From an uncultured Dehalococcoidia bacterium (GTDB lineage: Bacteria; Chloroflexota; Dehalococcoidia; Lucifugimonadales; CATOSD01): 64,000 nucleotides of DNA. A program made the position numbers and the translations under genes. Positions 16,758 to 57,680 of the stretch are shown one piece after another. Location of the stretch: the NCBI GenBank assembly GCA_951812395.1, contig CATOSD010000002.1, forward strand, positions 546,442 to 610,441. Reading direction: 5' to 3'. The first letter of the stretch is position 1; each line of letters starts with the position of its first letter. The notes beneath the pieces were generated by a model. The model saw nothing but the letters and a program-made list of their open reading frames with translations, made no database searches and was not told where the DNA came from.

Positions 16758-17162
16758 ATGACGAGAGACGAGATCGACGAGTTTCTGGCGCGCCCTCTGG
16801 TGGGCGTGATTACGACCCTTGACGCGGAGGGCCGGCCGAGGGCGACGCCTATCTGGTACGCATGGAAGGACGGAGAGGCCTACATGTTCACCGGCCGCGA
16901 CACGCTGAAGTGGCGCAACCTGGAGCGGAACCCGCACGCGAGCCTTTGCGTCGACTGGCGAGAGCCGCCGTACGCGGCGGTGACGATGGATGGCCCGGTG
17001 CGGGAGGTCGAGGGGCAGCTGTACGAGTTCGTGCTGGGCATGGCGCTGCGCTACTACGGGGAGGAGGAAGGGAGGGAGTTCGCCGAGTCTTATCGCGACA
17101 ACCCGCCGGGAGTGGTGGCGTTTGCGCTGACGCCGCGTCGCATCGCGACGTTCCGCTCGTAG
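16758..17162 (+). CDS. PPOX-class (pyridoxamine 5'-phosphate oxidase-like) probable F420-dependent enzyme
   Basis: 134 aa. LARPLVGVITTLDAEGRPRATPIWYAWKDGEAYMFTGRDTLKWRNLERNPHASLCVD fits the PPOX split-barrel family. GAGGAG RBS. Confidence 0.8.
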   Translation: MTRDEIDEFLARPLVGVITTLDAEGRPRATPIWYAWKDGEAYMFTGRDTLKWRNLERNPHASLCVDWREPPYAAVTMDGPVREVEGQLYEFVLGMALRYYGEEEGREFAESYRDNPPGVVAFALTPRRIATFRS

Positions 17163-17172
17163 GGGGGCGGCG

Positions 17173-18129
17173 TCAGTCGGAAAACAGGCCGTCGGCGAAG
17201 GCTTGTGGGTCGAACGCGGCGACGTCGGCGGGGCTTTCGCCGGTGCCAACGTAAAGCACCGGCAGACCGAGTTCGTCGGCGATGGCGATGGCAATGCCGC
17301 CTTTGGCGGTGCCGTCGAGCTTGGCGAGGAACACGCCGTCGCACTTGACGGCGTCGACGAATGCCCGCGCCTGGTACAGCCCGTTCTGGCCGGTGGTGGC
17401 GTCCAGGGTGAGCAGGACGCGCTGGGACTCCTCGCCGATCTGGCGTGAGAGCGCCCGCCGGATCTTCTTCAGCTCCTCCATGAGGTTGGATTTGGTGTGC
17501 AGGCGGCCCGCCGTGTCGATGATCACCACGTCAATGCCGCGGGCCCTGGCGGCGCTAAGAGTATCGAACGCGACGGACGCCGGGTCGGCGCCAGGCCTGT
17601 GGGCTACGACGTCGATGTCCAGCCGGCGGCCCCACACCTGCAGTTGGTCTATGGCGGCGGCGCGAAAGGTGTCGGCGGCGCCGAGCAGCACGCTGCGGCC
17701 GTCCTCTTGGAAGGCGCTGGCGAGCTTGGCGATGCTGGTGGTTTTGCCCACGCCGTTCACACCGACTGTAAGTAGGACCAAGGGCGGTTTCTCGACCTCC
17801 ATAGGCTGCGCGTCGCCATTGGCGTGAAGCAGCGTCACGATCTCCTGCTTGAGCAGTTCGAAGGCCTCCGCGGGGTCCGAAACGGAGTCCTGCCTGACCC
17901 GTGCGCGGAGCCTGTCGAGAATCTTCTGCGTGGTTGCGACGCCCACGTCGCCGAGGATGAGCGTCTCCTCCAGCTCTTCCCAGAGGTCGTCGTCGATGCC
18001 GGAGCGCCGGAAAATCGTCGCCACCTGGCCGAACCACGAGCGACGGGTCTTCGAGAGGGCTGATTCCGTCCTCTGCTTGTCCTTCTCTTTGTCTCTGCCG
18101 AACAGGCCTCTGAGCAACGCATTCACCAA
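17173..18129 (-). CDS. ftsY: signal recognition particle receptor FtsY
   Basis: SRP-GTPase motifs GVNGVGKTTSIAKLA, DTAGR and KLDGTAKGG. Confidence 0.95.
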   Translation of the reverse strand: MVNALLRGLFGRDKEKDKQRTESALSKTRRSWFGQVATIFRRSGIDDDLWEELEETLILGDVGVATTQKILDRLRARVRQDSVSDPAEAFELLKQEIVTLLHANGDAQPMEVEKPPLVLLTVGVNGVGKTTSIAKLASAFQEDGRSVLLGAADTFRAAAIDQLQVWGRRLDIDVVAHRPGADPASVAFDTLSAARARGIDVVIIDTAGRLHTKSNLMEELKKIRRALSRQIGEESQRVLLTLDATTGQNGLYQARAFVDAVKCDGVFLAKLDGTAKGGIAIAIADELGLPVLYVGTGESPADVAAFDPQAFADGLFSD

Positions 18130-18228
18130 TCTGCCAGTGTCGGTTTCAGGTAGAGGTTAGCACGGCCCAACGTGCCCAACAAGCCAATAGGGGGCCCGGT
18201 CCAGATTTCTTGGCTGCGCTCGAAATGA

Positions 18229-18261
18229 CAGGGGCGCTCCGCATTACGCGGAGCGCCCCTG
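18229..18261 (-). terminator. perfect 14-bp hairpin downstream of the small minus-strand ORF
   Basis: CAGGGGCGCTCCGC (18229-18242), loop attac, GCGGAGCGCCCCTG (18248-18261). Only a short T-run follows on either strand, so the terminator role is tentative. Confidence 0.35.
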
Positions 18262-18318
18262 CTCTTCATGTTGGCCGGGCTTGGAAGCTATCGGGTAGCC
18301 GGAGTCCGGGGCCCCACG

Positions 18319-18492
18319 CTAGCGGAGTGTGTAGCCCGCCTCCTGCTTCGCGGCGTTGGAAAAGTCCTTCCTGGCCTCTTCGTACGTCGGTTCTCCCGGC
18401 AGGCCGCGCTGGTGGATACTGTTCAGGTAGCCATCGAATCCGGCCGGCTGCTTCGCCTGGCGAACCAAATCTACAAATCTCTTGAGCAGCAT
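18319..18492 (-). CDS. small protein, tentatively YbdD/YjiX (DUF466)-like
   Basis: 57-aa ORF below the track cutoff: MLLKRFVDLVRQAKQPAGFDGYLNSIHQRGLPGEPTYEEARKDFSNAAKQEAGYTLR. Strong AAAGGAGGAA RBS 5 nt before the ATG. Loose resemblance to the ..DYDNYVxHM..HP....TYEEFFRE core. Confidence 0.45.
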   Translation of the reverse strand: MLLKRFVDLVRQAKQPAGFDGYLNSIHQRGLPGEPTYEEARKDFSNAAKQEAGYTLR

Positions 18493-18647
18493 GTGTTCCT
18501 CCTTTGGGGATCATCCCCTTGTCGCTGACTCGCCGCAATTCGTTCTGCTATGTGAATTGTATGACCGAACACAGTATCTCGTGAAGATATGTAACACTAT
18601 AATGATAATGGCGGTTCGCAATAGTATTTGTTGAGAGGGGTACGGAC

Positions 18648-19541
18648 ATGGAACTGAGGGAGCTGAGGAGCTTTTGCTTGGCGGCACAGATGAGAAGCAT
18701 GTCGAAGGCGGCGGAGCGGCTGGACCTGGGCCAGCCGACGGTGACCAGCCACGTGCGCAGGCTGGAGGCGGAGTTGGGCATGACGCTGTTCGACCGTCTG
18801 AAGCGCCCGATCATGCTGACGCTCGCGGGCGAGAAGCTGGCGGAGCTGGCAATGCCGCTGGTGGAGGGGATAGACTCCCTCGCCACGCTCACCTCGACGG
18901 CGGAGTCGGCCGGGCCGGTGTCCATCGCTTCCACGCCCGACATCATCCCGCACACGCTGCTGAGGGTCGTCAGTGCCTACCTCGACCTGTATCCGCACGC
19001 GCACCTGCGCGTGCGGTCTGGCACCAGGCCGGCCGTGCTCCAGATGGTGCGAGACGGCGAGGTGGACATGGGGATCGTGCAGCACGCCGAGAGGAGCGAC
19101 GACCTGGCGTTTGAGGGGCTTTTCGTCTACGAGAACGTGCTGATCGCGCCGAAGGATCATCCGCTGCTCTCAGAGGAACTGGCGTCGCTCGCGCAGCTAG
19201 CGCCGTATCCGCTCATCCTGATGGGTGGAGAGTCGCAGACGAGAGAGTTTCTGGAGAGGGAGCTGACTCGCCGCGCGCTCGACTACGAGGTGTTGCTCGA
19301 GCTGGACAGCATGGACATGATCAAGAAGTACGTGGCGCTCGGCATGGGCGTATCGGTGGGGCCGCGGCTGGCGATCGAGCCGGAGGACGAGCGTGACCTG
19401 GGCGTGATAAGCCTGGCTAACCTGCTGCCCGTCGACCAGGGTGGAATCGTGGCTCTGGAGGGCAAGGCGTTGTCCACACCCGCCAAGAGATTCATCACCA
19501 CGATGAGGAACGAGCTGAGGGTGCATCCGGTGACCCGGTGA
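18648..19541 (+). CDS. LysR-family transcriptional regulator
   Basis: N-terminal wHTH LRELRSFCLAAQMRSMSKAAERLDLGQPTVTSHVRRLEAELGMTLFDR plus a LysR substrate-binding domain. Confidence 0.9.
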   Translation: MELRELRSFCLAAQMRSMSKAAERLDLGQPTVTSHVRRLEAELGMTLFDRLKRPIMLTLAGEKLAELAMPLVEGIDSLATLTSTAESAGPVSIASTPDIIPHTLLRVVSAYLDLYPHAHLRVRSGTRPAVLQMVRDGEVDMGIVQHAERSDDLAFEGLFVYENVLIAPKDHPLLSEELASLAQLAPYPLILMGGESQTREFLERELTRRALDYEVLLELDSMDMIKKYVALGMGVSVGPRLAIEPEDERDLGVISLANLLPVDQGGIVALEGKALSTPAKRFITTMRNELRVHPVTR

Positions 19542-19585
19542 CAATGGTGAGTTTTGAGAGATCAAGACTGTTGCGCCTCGTTCGT

Positions 19586-19621
19586 CACCCCCATCCTAAC
19601 CCCCCTACGAGGGGGAAGGGA
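19586..19621 (+). repeat. REP-like element copy (CACCCCCATCCTAAC + G/C hairpin)
   Basis: cacccccatcctaacccccctacgagggggaaggga, lying between the convergent LysR and sortase gene ends. Confidence 0.75.
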
Positions 19622-19705
19622 TGATTTGAAGGAAACCTACCGCTGTCAGCGGTGGGCCGGTGACCCTGCTGACGCGTACACCGTGCCAAGTTCTGTGAGG
19701 TTGGG

Positions 19706-20734
19706 CTAGTTCAGCTCCGCCTCGGGCCGGAAGCCCACCAGATTGGCCGTAACTACCTGGCGATAGTCGTACATGGGCCGGTTGGCGCAGGTAACGAGAG
19801 TGATGGTCGAGTCGGTGGAGTCGTACAACCGCAGTTCGGAGTGGTGTACGACACGGGACTCGACGACCTGGTACAGATACACACCGCTGTCACTGTCAAC
19901 GTTGACGTAGACGGGATCGCCGTTGGTGAGCAGCCGGGCGATGTCGGGGAGACGCTTGAAAACGTTCCCCTCGCCCGCCACCGGGCTTTCGAGGTGGCCG
20001 AAAAACCAGCCGTTGCCAAGCTCGCCCGGATTTGCCGTGCCTGGTATGTGGCCGACCACCTGGTTCGGCGTCTCGTATCTGCGTCTGTCGCCGAGGTCGA
20101 GCAGGGCCAGCTCGCTGACGTCGGAGTAGACGCCTATGGCCGGAATTGCCAACCTCAGCGCCGGGGCGTTGGACCCCTTCGACATGCTCTCCAACTCGGA
20201 CGCTGGAATGAATCCCTTGGTCGCGCTGGAGTCGAGGGCAGTATACACGTCGGCGCCGGCCCACATCGGCTGATGCCAGTACTTCGGGTGGATCTGTGTC
20301 GTTGGGAACGAGGCGTAGCTGCGCACTCCGGCGAATCCTACGGGCGCGGCGTCGGGCGCGGCGGAAATCTCGGTCTGGATGTCTGACCGAGAGGGCGCGA
20401 CGAAGCTGCCGACCGGCGCAGTCGTGTCAAGGTAGGGATACAGCGGGAGTTGGGTCTGCGGGCGTGGCGGGTCCGGAGCGGTGATGCCGAGGGAACTCTC
20501 CGACTCACTCTCGCTCGCGCGGGCGACGCTTGCGATGATTGGCGGCAGCGAGGGCGGGCCTCCAAACGAAGCGTTGAGGTTGTCCAGTTGGGACGTGGAG
20601 TAAAGCCCCAGGGCGTAGTAGGCGCCGACCGCGGCGAGAAGAAGCGCGCCTACGGCGAGCATTGCAACACCGAGGGCGGTTACGAGCGTGGGCAGGCGGC
20701 GTGGGCGCGGGGAGCCTGGGTTACGTTCTTCCAT
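19706..20734 (-). CDS. sortase-family transpeptidase (class E-like)
   Basis: N-terminal TM anchor, then a C-terminal catalytic TLVTC motif and a preceding His region (VGHIPGT). Confidence 0.75.
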   Translation of the reverse strand: MEERNPGSPRPRRLPTLVTALGVAMLAVGALLLAAVGAYYALGLYSTSQLDNLNASFGGPPSLPPIIASVARASESESESSLGITAPDPPRPQTQLPLYPYLDTTAPVGSFVAPSRSDIQTEISAAPDAAPVGFAGVRSYASFPTTQIHPKYWHQPMWAGADVYTALDSSATKGFIPASELESMSKGSNAPALRLAIPAIGVYSDVSELALLDLGDRRRYETPNQVVGHIPGTANPGELGNGWFFGHLESPVAGEGNVFKRLPDIARLLTNGDPVYVNVDSDSGVYLYQVVESRVVHHSELRLYDSTDSTITLVTCANRPMYDYRQVVTANLVGFRPEAELN

Positions 20735-38069: not shown

Positions 38070-38327
38070 GTGAGTCTGAACATCAAGAGCGAAGAGGCCC
38101 ATCAGTTGGCCAGGGAGTTGGCGCAGCTCACCGGCGAAACTATGACGGGCGCGGTCACGGTTGCGCTCAGGGAGCGGCTCGCCAGGGAGAGGCGCGAACG
38201 CAGCGTCGAGGAGCGGATGCGCGAGATCCACGCGATAGCGCAGCGCTGCGCCAGTATGGTGGGCGACGGCCCCTCCGCCGTCGAGCACGGCGATTTCCTG
38301 TATGACGAGCGGGGGCTGCCCAGGTGA
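38070..38327 (+). CDS. vapB: type II antitoxin, VapB/FitA-like
   Basis: 85 aa with a GTG start after AAGGAGAAA. MSLNIKSEEAHQLARELAQLTGETMTGAVTVALRERL is typical of this antitoxin class. Overlaps the toxin start (GTGA). Confidence 0.8.
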   Translation: MSLNIKSEEAHQLARELAQLTGETMTGAVTVALRERLARERRERSVEERMREIHAIAQRCASMVGDGPSAVEHGDFLYDERGLPR

Positions 38328-38710
38328 TAGTAGATTCGTCGGCGGTCCTTGCGATCCTGTTAGGTGAACCAGACGCTGAGAGGTATGAGAGGGCGATAGC
38401 TGAAGCTTCTCGCTGCCAAATGTCGGCCGCCAATTACCTGGAAACAGCAATTGTCCTTGAAAGTCGGACAGGGCCTGCAGGCATTCACGAACTCGACCTT
38501 CTGGTGGAGAGAGTTCCAATCGAGTTGACGCCAGTTACATCTGAGCAGGCCCGGGGCGCTCTGAGCGCTTGGCGGCGTTTTGGCAAGGGCAACCATCCAG
38601 CGGCCCTGAACTTTGGCGATTGTTTCGCGTACTCGTTGGCGGAGGCCAGCCGGGAGCCGCTTCTGTTCAAGGGCCTGGACTTCGGGCTGACGGACATTGA
38701 GCCTGCGTGA
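38324..38710 (+). CDS. vapC: type II toxin VapC (PIN-domain ribonuclease)
   Basis: MIVDSSAVLAILLGEP.. (first acidic residue), a later E, ..NFGDCFAY.. (conserved D) and a length of 128 aa. Confidence 0.85.
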   Translation: MIVDSSAVLAILLGEPDAERYERAIAEASRCQMSAANYLETAIVLESRTGPAGIHELDLLVERVPIELTPVTSEQARGALSAWRRFGKGNHPAALNFGDCFAYSLAEASREPLLFKGLDFGLTDIEPA

Positions 38711-38721: not shown

Positions 38722-39069
38722 TTAGCGTAGGCGGACGTTGCAGCGGGGCTGCCAGTCGCTGACCACGCGGGCCTCGAGCTCGCGGGTTTGGGCGTCGTCG
38801 TCGGTGAAGGCGACGCTGAACTGCACGTCGTCGCCGAACATGGCTAGCTCTCGGCGCAGTTCGGGGTTGGTCTCGTTGTAGAGGTGGGAGAGCAGGCGCT
38901 GGCGGACGGAGGTGGTGGATATGCCGACGTAGAGGCATTCGGGGTAGTCGCCGGAGGGGAGCCAGAGGGCGTAGACGCCGCGCCGGTTCAGGGGTAGTGA
39001 GCGGACCTCGGCACTGTGAAAGGGGCGATGCTCCCTTTCGAGCTGGTACTTGAGCGCGAACGGGTTCAT
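38722..39069 (-). CDS. stand-alone GIY-YIG nuclease-domain protein
   Basis: 115 aa: GVYALW..(x11)..LYVGIS, RQRLLSH, later ELEARV and N. Begins 24 nt downstream of the DUF1156 gene on the same strand. Confidence 0.75.
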   Translation of the reverse strand: MNPFALKYQLEREHRPFHSAEVRSLPLNRRGVYALWLPSGDYPECLYVGISTTSVRQRLLSHLYNETNPELRRELAMFGDDVQFSVAFTDDDAQTRELEARVVSDWQPRCNVRLR

Positions 39070-39093
39070 TAGACTTCCACCGTAAGTGAACGG

Positions 39094-41937
39094 CTAAAGC
39101 AGTCGGCCCGTTTGGGCTTCCTGTATCCTGTTGGTGATGTCCTGCCAGGAGGTGACGAGGTTGTTGAATATGACGGCGTTCTGCGAATCGTTGGTCCGAT
39201 CATAGTGGTTGTAGAGGATGCGGGCGAGTCGTTCGACGGATTCGACGTCGCCGCCGAGGCCGGCCATCTGGCGGGCGACGCTGGCTGCGCCGTCCACTCC
39301 GCCACCGGCTTCGCGGTTTAGGTGCCAGGCCATTCTCATGCAGCCTTCCCAGGCGGTCATGCCGCGTGAGAGCGGCCTGTCGGCGCCGAAGTCGTCCATG
39401 CGGCGTAGTTTTACCTGGCCTGCCTCGGCGGTTAGCAAGCCATGCATGGTGTCAGATTCTACGGCCACGTTGCGTGCCTGCGAGAGCACCTCGGCCTCGC
39501 CGTACGCGCCTTCGGCGAAACCGTGTTGCTTCAGCCAGTCGATGCAGAAACGGCTTTCAGCGTCGATTTCGCCCTCCTGGGCTTGGTGGTAGTCGTCGAT
39601 TGCTTGGTTTATGGCCACTAGTGCATCGCCGACTGTAACCTGCTCGCCGCTAATGGTGCTGACACTGCTGAATCGTGAGTATATCTCCATGCCAGGACCG
39701 ATTGCCGCCTGCGCAAGGTCAGTGGGGGCGATGTGGCTCTCGTGAGTAAGACGATTGAGCGCGGCGGGCATTTCGGCTTGCAAAGCGTCGAGAAACTCGC
39801 GGCGGGTGGCGGCCGGTGCTTCATCCGGCCGCGGGCGACACACGAGGATTATTGAAGAGGCTAGGGCGTTGAAGTTGAGTGAACGCAGCCGACTCCGCAT
39901 CTCTGTGCGCATTGGCCATGTGCCGACTACTTGAAAGCCAGCGTCGACTAACGCACTTAGCATTGTTTCCCACCCAGTTGAGGTAGTGCCGTTGCGCTTC
40001 TCCTCTTGTTGCTTGTATGCGTAAAAGATGGACGAGGGGAACTCTGATGAAGTCCTCGTTCTAATGATACGCAGGGTATTTCTTAGGAGATCTTCGAACC
40101 TGCTGTGGGCGTCCTCGAATCTAGTTGGCTCGGCTATCATTTCTTCGTCTTTGGGGGTTGTGATACCTGCGAACAGATCGGGGTATCTATCCCGGAGCAA
40201 AGGACGCATCCAAATGTAGAAGAAATCTGACAAATCTGCGTACGCGATGTTGTCGTAATATGGAGGGTCGGTTACTATGACAGGGCCTGATTCAGAAAGT
40301 AAGGTGGTAGACGCATCGGCTTGATGGGCTCTACCTGGATTGATGCTTGTGGGCAACCGTTCCACTACTCTTGATACCCATTCAACTTGCGCCATCCAGT
40401 TTTGGGATGAGTCAGAGAAGTGGTTTGCTTCCGCAAAGTCCCAGATCATTGAAATGGCTTGGCGGGCGAAAACGCCGGAGACTTTGTCTCCGGCGTTGTG
40501 CCACCTCGCAAAACGAGAACTACTGTGCGCATCGCGGCCGAAAGCCAGTGACAAATAAGTCACTACAACTTCAGCGTATTCGTGATCATGACAATCCTTT
40601 GCAACGCAAAGGCGAACTTGTTGCATCTGCTCGGCAAACTCAGTGAGTGAGTGCACCTGTCTTTCGGTGAAGAGCTGATGCCATTGTGTGAAGCCATACG
40701 CCTGAACCCTGAAACCCAATGCTTTCACAGGCAAGGAGCCTCGTGGGCGCCATTTCGGTTTCGCAGACTTGGCGCATTCTATCTGTTTCGGCGTGGGTGA
40801 CAGAAACACTCGCTTTCCACGCCCCTCGGCGACGACACTGGTCATAATCTCGCCCATGTTGCCGGCTTTGGACTGCTCGCGAATGTAGGTGTGGGGAACC
40901 GTTCCGCTACAGCCCACGCATACCGCACCTTTGCCTCCGGGAATAACGGTGCGCTCAAGCGGAATGCCCTCGTCGTTGTTCTGCACGACGAAGGAAACAG
41001 TCTTCGATTCCTGGTCGACTTCTGGCCTCGTCCAATGCTGGTTCTTGGCCTTCTTGGACAATTGGAATGTTGCCATCAGCGGCATCTGGATGCCACAGGC
41101 TGGGTTAGGACATGGCACGGTGCGCGCCCACAGCCACGCAATCACGGTGGCTTCGCCTCCGTCGGGCAGCTTGGCCTTTGGGTACAGGTGGCCAATGCGC
41201 TTGAACGCCTCGTCGCGCATCCATTTGCCGTAGTAGCGTATGTCGTCGGCTAGGCCGGCGGCGCCGCGCCAGGGTATCTGTTCGGGTTTCCGGTTCTTGC
41301 CCCTGCCGATGAACTTACCGGTTGTCATACCCATGGGGTCGGCGGCCGGGTTGACGGGCGGCTTGCCGTTGAATTTGGGCGGCAGCTCGATGAGCGCCTT
41401 GTTTATGAGGACGGCGACGGGGTTAAGGTCGGAAGCTATGGCGCGTAGTCCGAGCCGCTGCGCCTCCAGTGGGATGGAGCCGCCGCCAGCGAAGGGGTCA
41501 TAGATGGGCAGTGCTCTGTCCCCCAGATAGCGCAGCACGGTGGAGGGATCGGACTTGTCGGGCGGGTCGTCACCGCGTGAGCGGGCAACTGAGCGGGCTA
41601 TCTCGTAGCGGGCGTTGGCGATGAGCTCGCGGGCTTCGGGCTTGCTCTCGTCGGTGTTCTCCCATTTGACGAGTTCGCGGATCATGTCGTGTAGCCGCTC
41701 GCGCTCTTTGGCCTGTTCGCTCTCTGTGGGGAGCTCTTCGGGGCAGGAGGACGGGTCGTCTACCAGGCTGGCGAAGATTACGGCGCGACAGGCGGCGAGG
41801 GGGCGACGCGCCCACCAAAGGTGAAGGGTGGAGGGGTGGCCGTGGCGGATCGACTTTTCGCGGGCGGATTCGCGGTTGATGTCGTCCAGCGGTAGGTCTA
41901 CTTCGATGAGTTTTTTGCGGTAGGTGGGCTGGCTCAC
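39094..41937 (-). CDS. DUF1156-type DNA methyltransferase (N6A/N4C class, DPPY) with an internal zinc ribbon
   Basis: N-terminus KLIEVDLPLDDINRESAREKSIRHGHPSTLHLWWARRP (DUF1156 signature). Motif I DPFAGGGS (41476-41499), Cys pairs CPNPAC and CVGC, motif IV DPPY (40258-40269). The GTG start overlaps the upstream stop. Confidence 0.85.
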   Translation of the reverse strand: MSQPTYRKKLIEVDLPLDDINRESAREKSIRHGHPSTLHLWWARRPLAACRAVIFASLVDDPSSCPEELPTESEQAKERERLHDMIRELVKWENTDESKPEARELIANARYEIARSVARSRGDDPPDKSDPSTVLRYLGDRALPIYDPFAGGGSIPLEAQRLGLRAIASDLNPVAVLINKALIELPPKFNGKPPVNPAADPMGMTTGKFIGRGKNRKPEQIPWRGAAGLADDIRYYGKWMRDEAFKRIGHLYPKAKLPDGGEATVIAWLWARTVPCPNPACGIQMPLMATFQLSKKAKNQHWTRPEVDQESKTVSFVVQNNDEGIPLERTVIPGGKGAVCVGCSGTVPHTYIREQSKAGNMGEIMTSVVAEGRGKRVFLSPTPKQIECAKSAKPKWRPRGSLPVKALGFRVQAYGFTQWHQLFTERQVHSLTEFAEQMQQVRLCVAKDCHDHEYAEVVVTYLSLAFGRDAHSSSRFARWHNAGDKVSGVFARQAISMIWDFAEANHFSDSSQNWMAQVEWVSRVVERLPTSINPGRAHQADASTTLLSESGPVIVTDPPYYDNIAYADLSDFFYIWMRPLLRDRYPDLFAGITTPKDEEMIAEPTRFEDAHSRFEDLLRNTLRIIRTRTSSEFPSSIFYAYKQQEEKRNGTTSTGWETMLSALVDAGFQVVGTWPMRTEMRSRLRSLNFNALASSIILVCRPRPDEAPAATRREFLDALQAEMPAALNRLTHESHIAPTDLAQAAIGPGMEIYSRFSSVSTISGEQVTVGDALVAINQAIDDYHQAQEGEIDAESRFCIDWLKQHGFAEGAYGEAEVLSQARNVAVESDTMHGLLTAEAGQVKLRRMDDFGADRPLSRGMTAWEGCMRMAWHLNREAGGGVDGAASVARQMAGLGGDVESVERLARILYNHYDRTNDSQNAVIFNNLVTSWQDITNRIQEAQTGRLL

Positions 41938-44900
41938 TCTGTACCTTCCTCGAAATCCAGTCCTAGCTGCTGGCTGTTCTCGCGAACCGCTCGCGCTATG
42001 CTGTCGGAAAACCCACTCGCATTCGTGGCGGATATTGTAACGCTAACTGTGACCTCTCCGCCGCCATCTATAAGGGCGCGGACAATCTCATCGCGAAGCG
42101 GGCTGATCTCGTCCAGTGACAGTTGGCCCTGGACGACCTTGTTGACCTGTATGCGTTTCACTGCTTTCGCCAGCGGTGGTTGGGACGGCGTCGGTTCCTT
42201 GGGAGTGTTGTCGCCCTCTTCGCTGTCCGAGTCGGGTTCTGCCGCAGGGTCATCGGATGTCGCCTTACGCTGCTGTTGTTCCTTGACCATCTCGGCCATG
42301 AGCCGGTCGACCAACAGTCCGTCGCCGCGCTCAGAGATTACCCCCTGCTCGCCAAAGAGCAGGTTCCTGTACTCTTCAGTGTCCGCGGTATAACTCTCGG
42401 CATAACCGAACTTGGCTTCCGGCACGCCCTCACGGACGCTGTCCAGAAGCACGCCCTTGTTGCGGAGGCGCTGCATGTAGACGTTCGTGGCCATCAGGTT
42501 CCACAGGTCGTCTAATGCTATGTGGTCGCGGGAGGTCGTCCAGATGTGTTTTTCGAGAATCGCCTGTAGCGCATCGGGGGAGAGCTTGTCCGCGAGCGCC
42601 TCCTCCTCGAGGAACTTGACGAAGGCGTTTTCGACTATCTGGCCGGTGTCCTGGGCGTTTATCTGCCACCGCGAGAGGTCGATGTTAGACGCATCTTGCG
42701 GGTCCGGCTGGAAGGGCGCGAGCGCCCAGCGGTAGGCGTTCACCAGTGCGCGGCGCAGTTCAGAGTCGTATCTTCTTACGTTCTCAGTCACCTGCGACCG
42801 ACGTGCGCCCGCCAGGTTGGAAACGGCGCGTTCGCCGGCGCGGATCGACTGCCAGGAGAGGTAGTTGCGGGCGGCCGTGTCGAGTTGGCGGACCTGGTCC
42901 CGCGCCGCCGCGAGGAATAGGAGGGTATTCTTGCGGATGCGGGGCGCGTCGCCTCGGTTCATGAGCAGGTCGAGGGCGAAGGGGCCGGCCAAGTCTTCCT
43001 CGGCGCGCCGGCTTGGGAGCGACTTGTCGTGGGGAAGAATGACCAGCCTGACGGTTTCCGTGTCCGGAACGTCGCCTGAGCTGACGGGGAACAGGACAAT
43101 GTCCGACCTGCGTGGTACGGACTCTTCCATCGACATGCGGATCTGGTCGGCGATTTCGCGGGCGGTGACGGTGCCCGCGCGGTCGGCGGCGACCTTGTTC
43201 AGGTTCTCCTCGACGTGGAAGAAGTATCTGTCGTCGCTGCTGTAGAGGTAGTACAGGTCGGCGGACATGCGGCCTATGGCCTCGTTGTAGACGGCGACTC
43301 CATCACCAGGCTTCACGGCCCCAAGCCGGATCTGGCGCATGTCGATGCCGCGGGCACTGCCTGTGGGCGCGCTGCCCAGGAAGATGGTGCGCGCTATCCG
43401 GCGCGACGCTCCACCTACTTCCGCGAACCTTTGGACGTTCTTGTCTATGCGGTCCGTTCTTGATTCGTCACTGTCCACTTCGGACATGACGGAGCTCCAG
43501 TTGCCAGTCATCAGGTTTACGAACTCGTTTGACGGGGCGGGGTCGTCCAGCGTGAGGCTGGCCGGCATTATCAGCGGGAACGGATCGTTTCTCAGGTTGA
43601 GGCGGCTGATGCATGCGGCCATCATCCTGAGGACGCCGCGAGTGCGCTGGAACCGCGCAATGGAGGACCAGTCGGAGTAGAGGCGGTCGAAAATCTCCGG
43701 GTGAATGGGGTAGCAGTCCTTCATGCGCTGTAGGTAGAGCTGCTCGCTAACCCCCTGCGGGTACTCGCTTCGATTCTGGCTATACATCCTCGAGAATGCC
43801 GCGCAGGTGCGGTCCCTCTCGGACTCGTCCAAGACAGCGCCGAACAGCCTGCGGCGGACGACTTCGAACGCCTCGTAGACTTCCAGCGGCTCCCAGGTTG
43901 CCTCGATGCGCCCGAGAATGCTGTCCAACCTGGCGAGCACTTCGGCGCCGAGCTCGCCTCCGGCTTCCACCGCGTGCTCGGGCAGGGTGATGACAAGCGA
44001 CACACGGCCGCTTCGGCGCGCGGCCTGGGTAAGGTTCTGGACGAAGGTGTAGTTGCTGTCGATTGCGTTGCCGGTGTTGCGGATGTAGGCGACCAGCTCG
44101 TCTATCAGTATGACGCAGGGACCGACGTGCTGAAACAACTCGTCGAGTTGGCCCGCGGGGGCGGTGCCCTGACGCGCGGCCTCTCCCACGATGTCGTAGC
44201 CTTCCTGCCCGCCGAGCTGGTAGGCCATTTCGCCCCAGAGCGTGTTGAGTGGGTCGCCTTTCTCGGTCGTTATGGAACTCGTGGGGGACAGGAACACGCA
44301 GTCGAGAACGGCCACCTTGGCGCCCTGCCACTCGTCCGGGTCCAGACCTGCCTCCTGCATCATGCCGCGAATCTCTTCGCTCGGCCTTCGGGCGTCTTCG
44401 CTATCACCAGCGGGGTTGATTAGCAGACTCGCGTTCTGGACAAGGTGATACAGCGCGATAAGGCTGTGGGTTTTGCCGCCGCCAAAGCCCGTCTTGGTCT
44501 GGATCACGGGCTCGCCGCCGTTGCCGGCTAGTCGCCTCAGCGTGTTGACGAGCAACGTGCGGATGCCGGGCGTGATGTAGGTGTGGGTAAAGAAACTCAC
44601 CGGGTTGCCGTACTGGGTCGCGTCGGCGCGTCCGTCGTGGACCTGTTGGAGGTCGGCGGCGAACTCGGCCTGGCTGAAGACGCCCTGCGCGACGTCCTGG
44701 TTTATGCGCACAACCTCCCGCCAGGGAGTGAGGGCGGTCGAAGTGCGCTGTGGGCGCTGTGGAAGTTCATCAGGCGGCGGGGAATCCGGTTGAGGCGGCG
44801 TCACGTCGGACAGAGTTGGCAGCGTGGGGGCGGCGAACAGCAAGTCCCGAATGCGCTCGACGTCTGCCCTTTCGCCTGGCCTGCCGATCTTACCGAGCAC

Positions 44901-45299
44901 GTCGATGATGTGGAACAGGTGCGCCCTGGCAAACTCGGGGTCGATGTCTTGCGTGGACGGATGGGACGCCTGGTTTCTGGCCTCCTTGATCTGCCAGAGG
45001 GCGTTCTGCACTGTCATATCGTTGCCAAGGGCGTTACGAAAGCCGTCTCGCCAGTAGTCCCGGATAAGGATGGGGAAGTTGTTTATGTCCAGCAGGGACT
45101 CGACGTCGACATTACCTCCAGCAGTGTTGGTGCGGTAGTCGTCCGGCGTCCACCTTTCGAGCGAGTTGCGAATACGGTCGTCCGGCCTGCCGCCCGGTAT
45201 GGTACGCAGGTTGCGAACGATGAACGGGCGCATGGCGTCTCGGAGAATGTCCAGGGCCCTTGTGAGGGCGTCCTTGTTGGGTCTGCTTACGGTGGTCAT
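41934..45299 (-). CDS. HEPN (Swt1-like) - DUF499 P-loop ATPase fusion protein
   Basis: Probable start is the ATG at 45299 (GGAG RBS). RNQASH Rx4H motif at 44961-44978, Walker A GFGGGKTHS at 44463-44489, Walker B VILIDELV at about 44085-44114, and the RFQRTRGVLRMMA block typical of DUF499. Confidence 0.85.
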   Translation of the reverse strand: MTTVSRPNKDALTRALDILRDAMRPFIVRNLRTIPGGRPDDRIRNSLERWTPDDYRTNTAGGNVDVESLLDINNFPILIRDYWRDGFRNALGNDMTVQNALWQIKEARNQASHPSTQDIDPEFARAHLFHIIDVLGKIGRPGERADVERIRDLLFAAPTLPTLSDVTPPQPDSPPPDELPQRPQRTSTALTPWREVVRINQDVAQGVFSQAEFAADLQQVHDGRADATQYGNPVSFFTHTYITPGIRTLLVNTLRRLAGNGGEPVIQTKTGFGGGKTHSLIALYHLVQNASLLINPAGDSEDARRPSEEIRGMMQEAGLDPDEWQGAKVAVLDCVFLSPTSSITTEKGDPLNTLWGEMAYQLGGQEGYDIVGEAARQGTAPAGQLDELFQHVGPCVILIDELVAYIRNTGNAIDSNYTFVQNLTQAARRSGRVSLVITLPEHAVEAGGELGAEVLARLDSILGRIEATWEPLEVYEAFEVVRRRLFGAVLDESERDRTCAAFSRMYSQNRSEYPQGVSEQLYLQRMKDCYPIHPEIFDRLYSDWSSIARFQRTRGVLRMMAACISRLNLRNDPFPLIMPASLTLDDPAPSNEFVNLMTGNWSSVMSEVDSDESRTDRIDKNVQRFAEVGGASRRIARTIFLGSAPTGSARGIDMRQIRLGAVKPGDGVAVYNEAIGRMSADLYYLYSSDDRYFFHVEENLNKVAADRAGTVTAREIADQIRMSMEESVPRRSDIVLFPVSSGDVPDTETVRLVILPHDKSLPSRRAEEDLAGPFALDLLMNRGDAPRIRKNTLLFLAAARDQVRQLDTAARNYLSWQSIRAGERAVSNLAGARRSQVTENVRRYDSELRRALVNAYRWALAPFQPDPQDASNIDLSRWQINAQDTGQIVENAFVKFLEEEALADKLSPDALQAILEKHIWTTSRDHIALDDLWNLMATNVYMQRLRNKGVLLDSVREGVPEAKFGYAESYTADTEEYRNLLFGEQGVISERGDGLLVDRLMAEMVKEQQQRKATSDDPAAEPDSDSEEGDNTPKEPTPSQPPLAKAVKRIQVNKVVQGQLSLDEISPLRDEIVRALIDGGGEVTVSVTISATNASGFSDSIARAVRENSQQLGLDFEEGTE

Positions 45300-45498
45300 T
45301 GCGGGGTCTCCGTTAGCGGCGTGTGGGTGATATGTGTGCGTGGGGCGTGGCTGCGGGTGATGGCGGCATTCTAGCACGACACGGCGTCGACGGGACAACG
45401 CGAGGCCGCCTTATGCAGGCCCGCCGGCGCACGCGCGCCGTTGGCGTAAACCTGCTAGACTTGGCGGCAACGCTGACACTGGACAGGGAGGTGTGCAC

Positions 45499-46551
45499 AT
45501 GCCCACCGTTGAGGCTGATCGGCTTGAGTTTATCGCGAGCAGGCTGCTGCAGGCCGCGGGTGCGAACGAGGAGGAGGCGGTTATCATCAGCCGGCACTCC
45601 ATTGGCGCGAATCTGGCGGGCCATGACTCCCATGGGATCATCCAGATTCCTACCTACATCGACCGGGTGAATCAGGAGCATATCGTGCCCGGCGCGCCGT
45701 TCGAGGTGGTGCGGGAGACGAACACCACGACCGTTATCGACGGGCATTGGGGGTTCGGTTACGTGGTGTCCGAGCGCGCGATGAACATGACGATCGAGAA
45801 GGCGCGGCAGAACAGCATCGCGGCGGCGACGGTGTTCCGGCAGAGCCACGTGGGGCGCGTCGCCGACTATCCGATCATGGCGGCGGAGGCCGGCATGATC
45901 GGCATGATGACCGCGGACTCCGGTCGCTCGGCCAAGTCGGTCGCGCCGTTCGGCGGCCGGGAGGCGCGGCTGGGGACGAATCCCATCTGCATCGCCATGC
46001 CCAGCGAGCTGGACGGTCCGTTCTTCATCGACATGGCCACCAGCGCAGTCGCCGCGGGCAAGCTCGCGGTGGCGACGGCGCGCAACGCGCCGATCCCGGA
46101 GGGCTGGCTGCTGGACAGCGACGGCAACCAGACGACGGACCCGGGCGCGCTGCGGCAGGGCGGCGTGATGCTGCCGCTGGGCGGGCCGGAGGGCCACAAG
46201 GGCTACGGGCTGTCCGCGATGGTCGAGATTTTTTCAGGCATACTGACCGGTCTGGGGTTTGGCATCGACCCGACGGGGCGCCACAACGACGGCTGCTTCA
46301 TGGCGGCGTTCAGCGTGGACGCGTTCCGCGATCTCGCTGAGTTCAAGCGGGAGGTCACGGAGTTTGCCGAGTACCTGACGAGCACGCCGCCCGCGGAGGG
46401 GTTCGACCGGGTGTACTATCCGGGTGAGCTTGAGCATCTGCGGGCCGCGCAGAAGCGGCGCGACGGCGTCGAGGTGGAGGATGCGACGTGGGAACGGCTG
46501 CGGGCGCTGGCGGTGGAGTACGGGTTGGCAGAGGAACTGGCGTTGGAGTGA
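45499..46551 (+). CDS. Ldh_2-family (malate/L-lactate/sulfolactate dehydrogenase-like) oxidoreductase
   Basis: ..AGHDSHGI.. and the overall pattern of the type-2 malate/lactate dehydrogenase family. ATG at 45499 after GGGAGG. Confidence 0.85.
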   Translation: MPTVEADRLEFIASRLLQAAGANEEEAVIISRHSIGANLAGHDSHGIIQIPTYIDRVNQEHIVPGAPFEVVRETNTTTVIDGHWGFGYVVSERAMNMTIEKARQNSIAAATVFRQSHVGRVADYPIMAAEAGMIGMMTADSGRSAKSVAPFGGREARLGTNPICIAMPSELDGPFFIDMATSAVAAGKLAVATARNAPIPEGWLLDSDGNQTTDPGALRQGGVMLPLGGPEGHKGYGLSAMVEIFSGILTGLGFGIDPTGRHNDGCFMAAFSVDAFRDLAEFKREVTEFAEYLTSTPPAEGFDRVYYPGELEHLRAAQKRRDGVEVEDATWERLRALAVEYGLAEELALE

Positions 46552-48266: not shown

Positions 48267-48446
48267 ACGCTGCGAGAGCATCGCCGCCGGTTCGGCGGCG
48301 CGGCGGGCGGGGGTTCGCAGTCCAGGGAGTAGCGGCAGGAATAGAGGAAGGTTCTCTGCCAATCCCCGTACGAGAACGGGACATGGTTGACTATTGGTAC
48401 GCTCCTAGCAGATAATTTGTTCCAAGATCATACTGCGAGGCGAATC

Positions 48447-49331
48447 ATGTCACGCGCACCCTCCAAATTGTACCTTGATGTCGATAGCAATACACCAGAA
48501 TTCGATCTTCCGAAGGGCGTAATCAGGCGGCAACGTCAACGTATGATCGCTTTTGGGTGGTACGGAGGCAAGTATAGCCAGTTGGACTGGCTATTGCCGC
48601 GTCTGCCTGACTCGCATCACTACTGTGAGCCATTTGGCGGCTCTGGCGCGGTCCTTCTCAACAGGCTTCCTTCACCTGTGGAGACATACAACGACTTGGA
48701 CGGAGAAGTCGTGAACTTCTTTCGTGTTCTGAGGGAGCAGCGAGAAGAGCTTGTCGCACAGATTGCGCTGACACCTTTCTCCCGCGAAGAGTTTTACCTT
48801 GCGATCTCGAACCAAGGTGAGGGTGTCTCGGCCCTCGAACGTGCCAGGCGGTTCTTTGTCCGCGCACGGCAAGCGAGAACCGGGCTCGCTCAGACCGCAA
48901 CACTTGGCAGATGGGCGAACTGCAAGAATACTAGCAGAGCGGGCATGTCAGGCGTAGTCTCGAGATGGCTTGGCAGCGTGGAGTCACTGCCGGAAGTCGC
49001 CGAGAGGCTGATGCGCGTGCAGATTGAGAATCGTCCCGCGGCGGATGTTATCCGGCTGTATGATGGTGGAAGGACCCTATTCTATTGCGATCCACCGTAT
49101 CCGCACGGTTCCAGGGGAGACAGTCGGGCCTATGGCTATGAAATGACTGACGCGGAGCACATTGAATTGTCGAAGCTATTGCACGGAGCTAAGGGTAAGG
49201 TCGCTCTCTCTGGGTATAGGTGCGATTTGCTCGATGAACTTTATGCAGATTGGGATCTGTATCTGGCTCCGGTCAAACAATCCCACGCCATAAAAAAGGA
49301 TCGACAGGAAGCCCTCTGGACTAACTTCTAG
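48447..49331 (+). CDS. D12-class (Dam-like) N6-adenine DNA methyltransferase
   Basis: FGWYGGKYSQL, motif I EPFGGSGAV, motif IV DPPY (49089-49100). Start ambiguous (48387, 48447 or 48543). Visibly AT-richer than the flanks. Confidence 0.85.
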   Translation: MSRAPSKLYLDVDSNTPEFDLPKGVIRRQRQRMIAFGWYGGKYSQLDWLLPRLPDSHHYCEPFGGSGAVLLNRLPSPVETYNDLDGEVVNFFRVLREQREELVAQIALTPFSREEFYLAISNQGEGVSALERARRFFVRARQARTGLAQTATLGRWANCKNTSRAGMSGVVSRWLGSVESLPEVAERLMRVQIENRPAADVIRLYDGGRTLFYCDPPYPHGSRGDSRAYGYEMTDAEHIELSKLLHGAKGKVALSGYRCDLLDELYADWDLYLAPVKQSHAIKKDRQEALWTNF

Positions 49332-49347
49332 ATGGGCGCACCCAAGA

Positions 49348-50436
49348 ATGCCTATCGAATACGAAAGTGCCAAGGAGGTTCTTCGAGCGGCGTTTGATGC
49401 CGCGGAAGTACATCTGCTCTCAGATAATGCTCGTCCCGCTCCGTCGATGCAATTCTCCGCCGACATTGATGTTGTGTTCGGGTCCAGAACACAGGCCTTC
49501 AGAGAGGTTCTGCTCGGCTGTCTGCTTGCACGCATTCAGGACAAGGATATCAACGTGAGGATGCCTTACGTTTCACTGGGATCCAGTGCATACAACGGCA
49601 GGACTCTCGATGAACGCGTAGTAAATCCGACACTTCAAGAGAGAAGAATCCCATCGTCCAGAGGTCCGTTCCTCAGTGTGTTCCGGCGTATGGTGTCTTT
49701 CGTTCCTGCCACGAGGGAAGGTCTTCGGGACAAGACAGCATACGACGCCTTTTTGGCCATCATTGACTTTGTGGCCAACACCGAGCACGATGAAGAGCTT
49801 AATGCTGTCCTAGAGTATGTCGCTTTTCAGTTCCTGAAGTTGCGTGAAGCTGCCGGAGCGCCACTGACTCGTGTGCACCGCATGAGTCTTGAGCAGATCG
49901 CGCAGTTGAGTGCTCTCCTACTCGATACCCCTAGCGGAGGCAGGCTCCCCGTGTACATGGTAGTGGCAACGTTTCAAGCCATAAGCAGGCGGTTCACTCT
50001 TAGTTGGGACGTTCGATGGCAAGGGATCAACGTCGCTGACTCGGCATCGGGCGTCGGCGGCGACATTGAGGTGGCATCCGAGGGATCTACAATTCTGGTT
50101 GCAGAGGTCACCGAACGAACAGTCGACAGAAACCGCATTGTGGCCACCTTTAACTCCAAGGTTGGCCCACACGGAATCATGGACTATCTGTATTTCGTGA
50201 GCGATCCAACCCAACCGGAGGATGCCATGCAGCAAGTGCGCCGCTACTTCGCACAGGGCCATGAGATCAACTTCGTTGTGGTTGCAGAATGGATTTCGGC
50301 CGTACTCGCGACACTTGGCAGCGCGGGCAGGCTGGTCTACCTTGAAGCCCTTCTTGAACTGATTGACCGAGACGATACGCCAGTAGCAGTGAAGTCCGCT
50401 TGGAACGACAACGTCAGCCGGATCATTGCCGGTTAG
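49348..50436 (+). CDS. hypothetical protein, positional candidate for the cognate restriction endonuclease
   Basis: 362-aa ORF 16 nt downstream of the methylase, same strand and same AT-richer composition. Possible nuclease-like GGDIEV-x11-AEVTER segment. No family recognisable by eye. Confidence 0.45.
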   Translation: MPIEYESAKEVLRAAFDAAEVHLLSDNARPAPSMQFSADIDVVFGSRTQAFREVLLGCLLARIQDKDINVRMPYVSLGSSAYNGRTLDERVVNPTLQERRIPSSRGPFLSVFRRMVSFVPATREGLRDKTAYDAFLAIIDFVANTEHDEELNAVLEYVAFQFLKLREAAGAPLTRVHRMSLEQIAQLSALLLDTPSGGRLPVYMVVATFQAISRRFTLSWDVRWQGINVADSASGVGGDIEVASEGSTILVAEVTERTVDRNRIVATFNSKVGPHGIMDYLYFVSDPTQPEDAMQQVRRYFAQGHEINFVVVAEWISAVLATLGSAGRLVYLEALLELIDRDDTPVAVKSAWNDNVSRIIAG

Positions 50437-55818: not shown

Positions 55819-57680
55819 CCCAAATCCACCGCCTAACCGCGGCGGGGGGGGGTGTGGTGGGTTGGCGAGGGTGAATGTGCGTTTTGGGGCCGGTCAGTTG
55901 GCGTGGGGAAGGTCGATGCGACGGTCTGGGGGCGTGAGGCGGTTCCTGAGAGGGTAGTTGGAGGGTTTTGGGCGAGTTTCGGACACGGCGAAGCCGACGA
56001 CTTCGGTTCAGTCGCCTCGAGTGTGGGTGGATTCCTAAGGAGAATCAGGCCCGGAGCGGCGTGTTTGCCAGAGCGTGTATCCTGCGTTGCGCACTCACGA
56101 GCAGGTCATGGGTTGGGTGTCCTCTCGCGAGACGGATGATGAGCCTCCTTGCGTGTCTGACCACTCGCCCCGCAACGCAGATTACGCCGAAGCGCACCGC
56201 CTTCAGACGCTTGCTCACCCACTCTTCCCCCAACACCAGCCGCTTCATCGCTGAGTTCAGATTGAACGCCAACACCACAATCGCCCACCACGCCGCGTTC
56301 GACCCGAACTTCCCCGACGGCAGCCTGCCCCCCGCAAGATCCTCCTTCAGCACCGAATGGACCTCCTCCCCTTTGCCGCACCTCTGCCTGTACCACCGGA
56401 CCAACTCATCCCCAGGCAGCTCTCGGTTCGTCACCATCCCTGTCACTTTGTACAATTTGCCATCCCCCATCTCCATAATGGGAACCGATAGCTTCTCCCC
56501 ATCCATGTCGAACAGCGGCGGGTTCGGCATACGCTCCCTTATCGCGATGAACCTGTAGTCGGGACTGTTCTTGCTGTATCCCGTCCAACTGGTCACGTAG
56601 CACACCTCGGCGTACTGCTGTCTTGTGGCCTCTCGTTGCTCACCCTCTGTCCTGTACAGGTCGTGCCATCCTTCCTCCTCTACCTCACTCACCGCCGCCC
56701 TGAACTCGGCCATCACGTTCACTCCCACACAGAACTCGATCACTCCGAACCGCTCATCCCTTCCCTCGGCGCAGTACTTCAATAGCTCCTTCTGGTAGCC
56801 TGCCGAGTCAGACCTCATCATCACCTTGCTCACCCCGGACGGCAAACACTCCAGCGACTCCTTCAACACCCTGAGCTGTTCGTAGCCCGCGTTCACGTTG
56901 CCGTCTCTGAACTCGGAGTGCACCACAAGGTCCGCCTCATACCAGTAGGTGGTCAACGGCTGGTACGCCTTGTGCTTTTTGTAGCAGAAGCACGCCTGCC
57001 GCTTGTGCGTCCCTATCAGCGTGGCGTCCATGTCCAATGTCGCTTCGGTGTGTCCTGAATGGCCTCCCGCGAACCTCACCAGGTCCGCGTTGACCTTCCC
57101 AAGCCCTCTCAGCGCGTCGTTGGCCGCCGGTATGAACGCCTTGCGAGACCGTCTCCTGGCCTCCTCAGCCTCGTCGTGGAAACGGTCCAGATACCTGAAC
57201 ACCGCCGTGGGCGACGGCACAGTGCGGCTACGCTCCTTACGCCACCTTCTGAGCTGCGCCCTGCGCTCTGCCCGCCGCACCCCGTGAGTCTCCGCGGTGA
57301 GCAGCGCCCTGCCCAGCCCCTCGTCCTTCTCCAGCAGCCGCAGGTCATCCACCGACTCACCACCGGCCAGATTGAGCATCACAAGCGCCGTCACATTCTG
57401 GGCGTCCGTCCACCCCTGTGTGCCCTCTCTCACTCCCACGTGACGGCGCACCGACTGCCCCAGTCGGGCAACAAACGCCAAGTCCAGGTATGCCGGCAAC
57501 CCCGACAACGCCGTCATACCAGTAGACTCGGTCTCCTCTGCGTAGTGGAAAGGAAGCGTTGCTTGCTGCATAATAGTCGCACCTCGTTGGTGATGGGTTG
57601 TTGTTGATAACTACCATCATAGCCGGCTTTACAGCCGGCTCCAACGAGGCCTTCCTTTGCAACTAGGCGGTGGATTTGGG
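55819..57680 (-). mobile_element. IS1380-family insertion sequence
   Basis: Perfect 17-bp terminal inverted repeats CCCAAATCCACCGCCTA (55819-55835) and TAGGCGGTGGATTTGGG (57664-57680). 5-bp direct duplication TTGGT (55814-55818 and 57681-57685). Confidence 0.85.
56045..57571 (-). CDS. IS1380-family DDE transposase
   Basis: 508 aa. N-terminal ..LPFHYAEETESTGMTALSGLPAYLDLA.. and C-terminal ..VAGRVVRHARRLIIRLA.. are typical of IS1380-family transposases. Confidence 0.8.
   Translation of the reverse strand: MQQATLPFHYAEETESTGMTALSGLPAYLDLAFVARLGQSVRRHVGVREGTQGWTDAQNVTALVMLNLAGGESVDDLRLLEKDEGLGRALLTAETHGVRRAERRAQLRRWRKERSRTVPSPTAVFRYLDRFHDEAEEARRRSRKAFIPAANDALRGLGKVNADLVRFAGGHSGHTEATLDMDATLIGTHKRQACFCYKKHKAYQPLTTYWYEADLVVHSEFRDGNVNAGYEQLRVLKESLECLPSGVSKVMMRSDSAGYQKELLKYCAEGRDERFGVIEFCVGVNVMAEFRAAVSEVEEEGWHDLYRTEGEQREATRQQYAEVCYVTSWTGYSKNSPDYRFIAIRERMPNPPLFDMDGEKLSVPIMEMGDGKLYKVTGMVTNRELPGDELVRWYRQRCGKGEEVHSVLKEDLAGGRLPSGKFGSNAAWWAIVVLAFNLNSAMKRLVLGEEWVSKRLKAVRFGVICVAGRVVRHARRLIIRLARGHPTHDLLVSAQRRIHALANTPLRA

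Follow-up and report, generated by a model that had tools for sequence, protein, structure and literature searches.

The Hma system, described by Payne et al. in 2021 (PMC8565338), combines a DUF499 protein (HmaC) and a DUF1156 protein (HmaB) with a Snf2 helicase-nuclease (HmaA). A 2026 survey in Nucleic Acids Research (PMC12839542) has since given it the new name of Type-1 DUF499-centred BREX-related (BR) system. In that survey the Type-1 core is tripartite, its third gene encoding a Swi2/Snf2 helicase that comprises a TUDOR domain, the helicase, an inactive REase and an active PD-(D/E)XK domain, and the HEPN-DUF499 neighbourhood, as cited there, was first noted by Anantharaman et al. in 2013. 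The same source describes a target-recognition insert after core strand 2 of DUF1156 methyltransferases, lists PD-(D/E)XK, HNH, HKD, TOPRIM, HEPN, PIN and Schlafen as the effector superfamilies of BR systems, and shows Poribacteria and Dehalococcoidia DUF499 proteins in one alignment. HmaA is the only Hma/BR component with a demonstrated function, the roles of HmaB and HmaC being open (PMC11232893). The present analysis concerns a related block of three genes on the minus strand (positions 38722-45299) of a 64-kb stretch of DNA, hereafter the window, from an uncultured Dehalococcoidia bacterium (contig CATOSD010000002.1).

The block encodes an HmaC-type ATPase with an N-terminal HEPN domain, an HmaB-type methyltransferase and a 115-residue GIY-YIG protein. 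It is best read, with a probability of roughly 0.6, as an intact example of a helicase-less Hma/Type-1 BR subtype, a restriction-modification-like defence system in which the GIY-YIG protein would serve as the DNA-cutting effector. Because both HmaC and HmaB models match, the core is no unknown system; what is new is a conserved and apparently undescribed subtype, with a minimal GIY-YIG gene and without a helicase-nuclease in its vicinity. The term "GIY" is absent from the main text of the survey (PMC12839542), of the Halomonas HmaA paper (PMC11232893) and of a preprint on genes embedded in Hma loci. Nor does any searchable paper connect GIY-YIG to DUF499 or DUF1156: none contains both "DUF1156" and "GIY-YIG", and the single work (in two versions) containing both "DUF499" and "GIY-YIG" uses them in unrelated contexts.

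Compared with Hma, full-length matches to the HmaB and HmaC models, embedded defence genes including the HEC-09 NYN gene, and horizontal spread are common ground. By the PADLOC definition of Hma, however, HmaC and HmaB are found and HmaA in the same locus is not; the third gene is instead the 115-residue GIY-YIG gene, and the order is C, B, GIY-YIG as opposed to A, B, C on plasmids. Type-1 BR likewise has a HEPN domain at the DUF499 N-terminus and a DUF1156 N6-methyltransferase with a variable insert, without PglZ or a DUF3780-like gene inside the operon, but its Swi2/Snf2 helicase with PD-(D/E)XK nuclease is absent here, and GIY-YIG is not among its effector superfamilies. Type-2 BR systems and the corresponding NCBIfam equivalogs, usually accompanied by DUF3780 and an HKD-helicase, share both protein superfamilies and the placement of the ATPase before the methyltransferase, as does the second system of a related locus (L027) described below; they differ in that the window operon lacks a DUF3780-like gene, and neither a helicase nor an HKD nuclease is present. 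The window proteins also score far below the cut-offs of the "anti-phage-associated" equivalogs of NCBI (157.4 bits against 1200 for DUF499, 135.6 against 1000 for DUF1156). The original prediction, which took DUF499 and DUF1156 to be an uncharacterised pair flagged as anti-phage-associated, was thus right about the families, but their core already bears a name and lies far from the flagged equivalogs.

The three-gene block and its proteins

The block and its borders comprise the following elements.

41934-45299, minus strand: gene 1, HEPN(Swt1)-DUF499 ORC/Cdc6-like AAA+ ATPase of HmaC type, 1121 amino acids (open reading frame, Pfam, PADLOC, motifs)
44730-45299, minus strand: Swt1-like HEPN domain and Pro-rich linker of gene 1, residues 1-190 (Pfam PF18731; R[N/D]xxxH conserved in the clade)
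39094-41937, minus strand: gene 2, DUF1156 N6-adenine-type DNA methyltransferase of HmaB type, 947 amino acids, GTG start (Pfam, PADLOC, motifs)
40288-41037, minus strand: variable central insert of gene 2, residues ~301-550, presumed target-recognition domain (low alignment identity, AT-richer stretch)
38722-39069, minus strand: gene 3, predicted stand-alone GIY-YIG nuclease, 115 amino acids (structure model, invariant residues, recurrence)
39070-39093, minus strand: gap of 24 nt between genes 2 and 3 with a ribosome-binding-like site, GGTGGAAG (sequence)
45300-45400, minus strand: operon 5' region with a GGAG site and a TAGAAT -10-like hexamer at ~45368-45373 (sequence)

The three genes occupy 6.6 kb on one strand, co-directional and at the positions first proposed for them, with intact reading frames and all catalytic motifs. 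The longest open reading frame of gene 1 extends over 41934-45398 on the minus strand; the start used here is the ATG at 45299, which has a GGAG ribosome-binding site 7 nt upstream and yields a product of 1121 residues identical to that in the public protein collection. At the junction of genes 1 and 2 the minus strand reads ...acagaGTGAgcc..., so that the GTG start of gene 2 overlaps the TGA stop of gene 1, and the TAG stop of gene 2 is separated by 24 nt, containing GGTGGAAG, from the ATG of gene 3. Both the GTGA overlap and the 24-nt gap claimed earlier can be read directly from the sequence, and the genes are tightly coupled. A scan for consensus promoters and terminators found nothing beyond chance expectation within the operon, and listed no promoter upstream. 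Coordinates of the four motifs on which the original prediction relied (RNQASH, GFGGGKTHS, DPFAGGGS, DPPY) were recomputed from the translations and agree, and its domain assignments hold for all three proteins, by Pfam and PADLOC for genes 1 and 2 and by structure for gene 3.

Gene 1 matches DUF499 in Pfam (E 1.4e-24) and the PADLOC HmaC model (E 1.9e-237) over residues 189-1116, corresponding to model positions 2-936 of 941. Since this match begins only at residue 189, a full-length HmaC here bears an additional N-terminal HEPN domain, which is recognised by HEPN_Swt1 (PF18731) at residues 14-133 with an E-value of 3.2e-7 and 31.1 bits against a cut-off of 27.5. Its Rx4H motif RNQASH (residues 108-113, 44961-44978) belongs to the R[N/D]xxxH signature of the predicted HEPN RNase that is kept throughout the clade of ATPases from loci with the same three genes (hereafter triads), as is the DE of Walker B, and the Walker A sequence GFGGGKTHS (residues 271-279, 44463-44489) is invariant in all 28 clade ATPases aligned. 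A HEPN fusion is ordinary for Hma/Type-1 BR, having been recorded in 1370 of 2446 Type-1 taxa (PMC12839542), and is no special mark of the window locus.

Gene 2 is recognised by the DUF1156 model of Pfam (E 8.5e-32) and, over its full length, by the PADLOC HmaB model (E 3.3e-285). Motif I, DPFAGGGS (residues 147-154, 41476-41499), and motif IV, DPPY (residues 557-560, 40258-40269), recur as DPF[AC]GGGS and DPPY in 26 of 26 methyltransferases of the clade. Between them, identity in the methyltransferase alignment falls to its lowest level, 0.42-0.56 for residues 301-550, the catalytic blocks being at ~0.8. That gene 2 is AT-richer in its centre, as noted in the original prediction, is confirmed by a GC fraction of 0.50-0.55 at 40000-40999, compared with 0.60-0.65 around it, and this stretch roughly coincides with this least conserved part, residues 301-550 presumably forming the target-recognition insert.

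For gene 3, an alignment-based AlphaFold model (pLDDT 91.8) finds its best Foldseek matches in the GIY-YIG domains of UvrC (1yd6 and 1ycz, probability 1.0), with TM-scores of 0.57-0.65 (query) and 0.71-0.81 (target). R.Eco29kI comes next, where the TM-score covers only ~0.26-0.31 of the Eco29kI chain. In a profile alignment the catalytic Glu and Asn of the family line up with those of the UvrC domain. In an alignment of 31 sequences G31-V32-Y33, Y47-V48-G49, R56, R58 and H62 are invariant, while E99 and N111 occur in 90% or more; the spacing of R58-x3-H62 we take to be similar to that of R27/H31 in I-TevI. A dN/dS of ~0.25 in a codon analysis indicates purifying selection. With the UvrC N-terminal domain, R.Eco29kI and R.Hpy188I the protein thus shares the fold and catalytic residues, but it is a catalytic core alone, preceded by a conserved N-terminal helical extension of 30 residues, whose conserved helix spans residues 3-23, and devoid of a DNA-binding or recognition module, and its family is small (82 representatives). 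Gene 3 therefore lacks the sequence-recognition elements of its own that characterise type II GIY-YIG enzymes. To judge from the model and the conserved residues it is a real, minimal and probably active GIY-YIG nuclease, and the structural match bears out the earlier assignment, though the Pfam scores stay below threshold. This may be why the gene is annotated as hypothetical; a precomputed PF01541 match exists for only one of 120 homologues.

Recurrence of the triad and the missing helicase

A homology search with gene 3 yielded 121 clusters at 90% identity, all of 94-161 amino acids, and an exhaustive HMMER search over 1.84 billion representatives gave 82 matches at E <= 0.001, nearly all of them small proteins. 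A pattern scan for the family in 185,579 GTDB species genomes located 40 loci (L001-L040) in Dehalococcoidia, Caldilineaceae, one Poribacteria and one Latescibacterota. More importantly, tblastn with the window proteins showed the HEPN-ATPase, the methyltransferase and the GIY-YIG gene to follow one another in this order and on one strand in 32 of these loci; the remaining eight consist of three at contig ends, one gene 3 fragment and four without partners, and one partnerless gene 3 locus adjoins a transposase and an integrase. The ATPase is accordingly present in 32 of the 36 loci free of contig-end or fragment limits. Approached from gene 1, for which 4635 homologues were found at E <= 1e-20 (identity is 54% or higher throughout the best 120), seven contexts (L050-L056) were fetched from homologues at least 54% identical; all six informative ones contain the ATPase, the methyltransferase and a gene 3 homologue, and no helicase. 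These gene 3 copies, whose GIY and YIG motifs are slightly different, are absent from the pattern scan, and the clade must therefore be larger than 40 species. Together the triad order recurs in 38 related loci (32 reached from gene 3 and six from gene 1) in three phyla. Among its carriers are the complete MAG chromosomes OZ253472.1, OY761541.1, OZ243964.1 and OZ241328.1. The tabulation of ATPase neighbours that had been proposed as a check thus returned a recurrent GIY-YIG gene and an absent helicase.

The helicase was searched for in the 64-kb window and in ~20 kb per related locus, using as tblastn queries five HmaA references taken from canonical loci. These references match all members of the canonical set, six plasmid loci from Thermus, Gloeocapsa, Nostoc, Niveispirillum, Rhodococcus and Acidovorax, as well as a second system in L027, but have no match in the window, in the other 39 gene 3 loci or in L050-L056. 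No helicase occurs among window open reading frames of at least 500 residues. Nine large flanking open reading frames were also scanned as helicase candidates, the sole Snf2 protein among them belonging to the separate canonical system in L027. Conversely, no gene 3 homologue was found in the six canonical loci, so that gene 3 and HmaA are mutually exclusive in the loci examined. A DUF3780-like gene is absent inside the operon, whose genes overlap or lie 24 nt apart and leave no room for a fourth, the rest of the window not having been searched with a DUF3780 model; PglZ, the phosphatase/nuclease of BREX and Type-3 BR, gave no match in the three proteins or in the scanned neighbours. The claim that the usual partners are missing therefore stands for an Snf2 helicase across the 64-kb window and for a DUF3780-like gene inside the operon. 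With every filter switched off, a profile search for a docking segment shared by gene 3 and HmaA helicases gave no match.

The triad is also set apart by lineage. The canonical plasmid ATPases are 31-37% identical to gene 1, an HmaA homologue lies upstream of the ATPase in all six of their loci, and the order, where annotated, is helicase, DUF1156, DUF499. In neighbour-joining trees the triad ATPases form one clade and the triad methyltransferases another, both apart from the canonical proteins. Poribacteria and Caldilineaceae copies are nested among those of Dehalococcoidia, which indicates horizontal transfer, and the flanking genes vary from one locus to another. The carriers are MAGs of Dehalococcoidia, Caldilineaceae, Poribacteria and Latescibacterota, typical sponge-symbiont phyla, which suggests exchange within one habitat. 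In L027 the two versions stand in tandem, the GIY-YIG triad (2067-10333) being directly followed by a canonical system (10126-20331) composed of an ATPase, a DUF6575-like gene, a methyltransferase and an SNF2 helicase.

Embedded genes and surroundings

Several related cassettes contain additional genes. The commonest gene embedded in the triad clade, encoding the HEC-09 NYN protein, lies between the ATPase and the methyltransferase in eight loci (L004, L010, L017, L025, L027, L029, L031 and L034); in L001 (1751-3463) HEC-09 NYN forms the C-terminal part of a 571-residue protein upstream of the ATPase, and in L051 (17866-18489) an NYN-domain gene lies just downstream of gene 3. Pairs of OLD-type ABC ATPases occupy the position between ATPase and methyltransferase in two loci, and SoFic is found between the methyltransferase and gene 3 in L024. 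Embedding of defence genes between core genes has been described for Hma in the preprint mentioned above, where HEC-09 alone gave no defence when tested. Outside the cassettes the flanks hold mostly metabolic genes; in the flanks of L001-L037 the PADLOC MADS models mad2 and mad3 match four and two proteins, with best E-values of 3e-23 and 3e-30, respectively. The expected enrichment of the triads near defence genes thus takes the form of known defence genes embedded in the cassette itself, the flanks being no classical defence islands.

In three related large genomes the cassette lies between sufB and sufC (L050, L053 and L056, ~9-17 kb), and in two others between the genes for pyruvate dehydrogenase E1 and E2 (L051 and L054, ~10-18 kb). 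These cassettes of 7-10 kb, inserted inside the essential suf and pdh operons, are co-directional with the host operon and have no integrase nearby. As the suf and pdh sites are each common to related genomes, only two insertion events are needed.

In the window, gene 3 faces a convergent pair of plus-strand genes at 38070-38710, vapB (Rv0623-like, PSK_trans_fac 2.4e-26) and vapC (PIN 4.5e-15), with 11 nt between the stop codons of vapC and gene 3. This confirms the vapBC neighbours of the original prediction, but its "MITE-like element" proves to be a 37-nt REP-like repeat with a GC hairpin, CACCCCCATCCTAACCTTCCCCCTGCGAGGGGGAAGG, present in five intergenic copies (at 36833, 46562, 46598, 47804 and 47828), not specifically tied to the block and probably a genome-wide repeat. 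Upstream the operon is adjoined by an open reading frame of 352 residues (45493-46551). At a distance of 3 kb upstream of the operon, the plus strand at 48387-50436 encodes a D12-class N6-adenine methyltransferase (Pfam 7.6e-22; PADLOC MTase_II 1.3e-56) and, directly after it, a SacI-like restriction endonuclease (Pfam 1.7e-7). Both fall in a low-GC block (0.53-0.57) and look like a separate type II restriction-modification pair. The only mobile-element gene found among the large open reading frames of the window is a DDE_Tnp_1_4 transposase (56045-57571, minus strand).

Weighing the explanations

Reading the block as a helicase-less Hma/Type-1 BR cassette implies a mechanism in which HmaB would methylate adenine within a motif that its variable internal target-recognition domain reads, so marking host DNA, while HmaC, an ORC/Cdc6-like AAA+ ATPase probably complexed with HmaB, would detect unmodified or otherwise foreign DNA. 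The GIY-YIG protein, having no DNA-binding domain of its own, could then be recruited or activated by the HmaB/HmaC complex and nick or cut the target, taking over the role of the PD-(D/E)XK nuclease carried on the canonical helicase, and the predicted N-terminal HEPN RNase of HmaC may provide a second arm of the abortive-infection type. We infer this division of labour, with methylation as the self mark, the ATPase as sensor and the nucleases as executors, much as it was first proposed, and given the recurrence of the GIY-YIG gene and the absence of the helicase the "reduced self/non-self system" of the original prediction is the best-supported reading.

Several observations weigh against it. 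Gene 3 does not reach the Pfam gathering scores (18.3 bits against 22.4 for PF20815, 17.0 against 22.6 for PF01541). Four orphan copies of it exist, in L026 (with a methyltransferase remnant only), L030, L032 and L035, and the ATPase or methyltransferase gene is split in several related loci, which may reflect decay or assembly error. The trees, neighbour-joining with six canonical outgroups only and no bootstrap, are a limited test of the separate clades, and with coverage of 64 kb here and ~20 kb per related locus a helicase may lie elsewhere in the genome. In Halomonas, HmaA alone gave defence, and the one published trial of HmaB as a protective methylase was negative, T4 from an HmaB-overexpressing host gaining no protection (PMC11232893); self-marking by HmaB is thus unproven even in canonical systems.

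The most serious competitor, though an unlikely one, is an ordinary Hma/Type-1 BR system whose HmaA is encoded elsewhere and acts in trans, the GIY-YIG protein being only an auxiliary or backup nuclease. Auxiliary nucleases beside BR cores are indeed common (PMC12839542), inserted genes often lie between the Hma genes (PMC11232893), and only part of each genome was covered. Yet no helicase appears within ~10 kb of the 38 related triads, apart from the canonical system of L027, or within the 19-38 kb on either side of the block in the window, and that canonical system comes with an ATPase, methyltransferase and helicase of its own. The mutual exclusion of GIY-YIG and HmaA in the loci examined, the separate clades of triad ATPases and methyltransferases with their different gene order, and the position of GIY-YIG outside the seven listed nuclease superfamilies of auxiliary effectors all speak against a mere accessory. 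Somewhat less probable still is that genes 2 and 3 make up a type II restriction-modification pair of the classical sort, whose nuclease is a GIY-YIG enzyme resembling Eco29kI or Hpy188I, with HmaC separate or accessory. GIY-YIG restriction enzymes exist, R.Eco29kI is among the structural matches, gene 3 always directly follows the methyltransferase, and L026 retains a methyltransferase remnant and gene 3 without an ATPase; but gene 3 amounts to the catalytic core only, about 0.26-0.31 of the Eco29kI chain and free of recognition elements, and the methyltransferase is a full-length HmaB, from a family so far described with DUF499 ATPases. The ATPase, moreover, accompanies gene 3 in 32 of the 36 loci free of contig-end or fragment limits and in each of the six found via gene 1, and the window copy shows translational coupling of genes 1 and 2.

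Homing endonucleases of the GIY-YIG type are well known, and the cassette sits at different genome sites (among them sufB/sufC and pyruvate dehydrogenase E1/E2) with no integrase or transposase beside it, so that gene 3 might serve mobility or maintenance of the cassette, by homing-like cutting of empty sites or by post-segregational killing. We consider this improbable, since homing enzymes possess a DNA-binding domain where gene 3 has none, gene 3 is strictly linked to HmaB and HmaC and not to introns or inteins, and the insertions at the suf and pdh sites, shared by related genomes, need number only two. Nor was the gene 3 family found on viral contigs, where a search gave only three weak matches at the level of motifs, none of them a family member. 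Least probable of all is a decaying remnant, a canonical system that has lost its helicase and has an unrelated small gene adjoining it: split genes in some related loci and orphan copies of gene 3 would fit, but the window copy has intact frames and all its catalytic motifs, the arrangement is conserved in three phyla, and gene 3 is under purifying selection.

Beyond the cassette reading itself, a more far-reaching proposal can be advanced tentatively, at somewhat less than even odds: HmaB and HmaC would form a self-sufficient core for sensing and modification that needs no DNA translocase, making this a fourth, helicase-independent DUF499-centred type that directs a trans-recruited minimal GIY-YIG nuclease to unmodified DNA and employs HEPN as a second, RNA-targeting arm. 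If confirmed, a core of this kind would restrict DNA in an ATP-dependent mode that is new, differing from BREX as well as from Types I to IV.

A PADLOC call of Hma requires HmaA, and the GIY-YIG gene has no Pfam call, so that loci of this kind are likely to be missed, or called incomplete, by defence-finding tools. With three genes in 6.6 kb and four catalytic sites the block is a compact test object, and offers a natural experiment on the roles of HmaB and HmaC. A variant that keeps these two proteins with no HmaA nearby argues that they are the functional heart of the system, in which case the effector would be an exchangeable plug-in.

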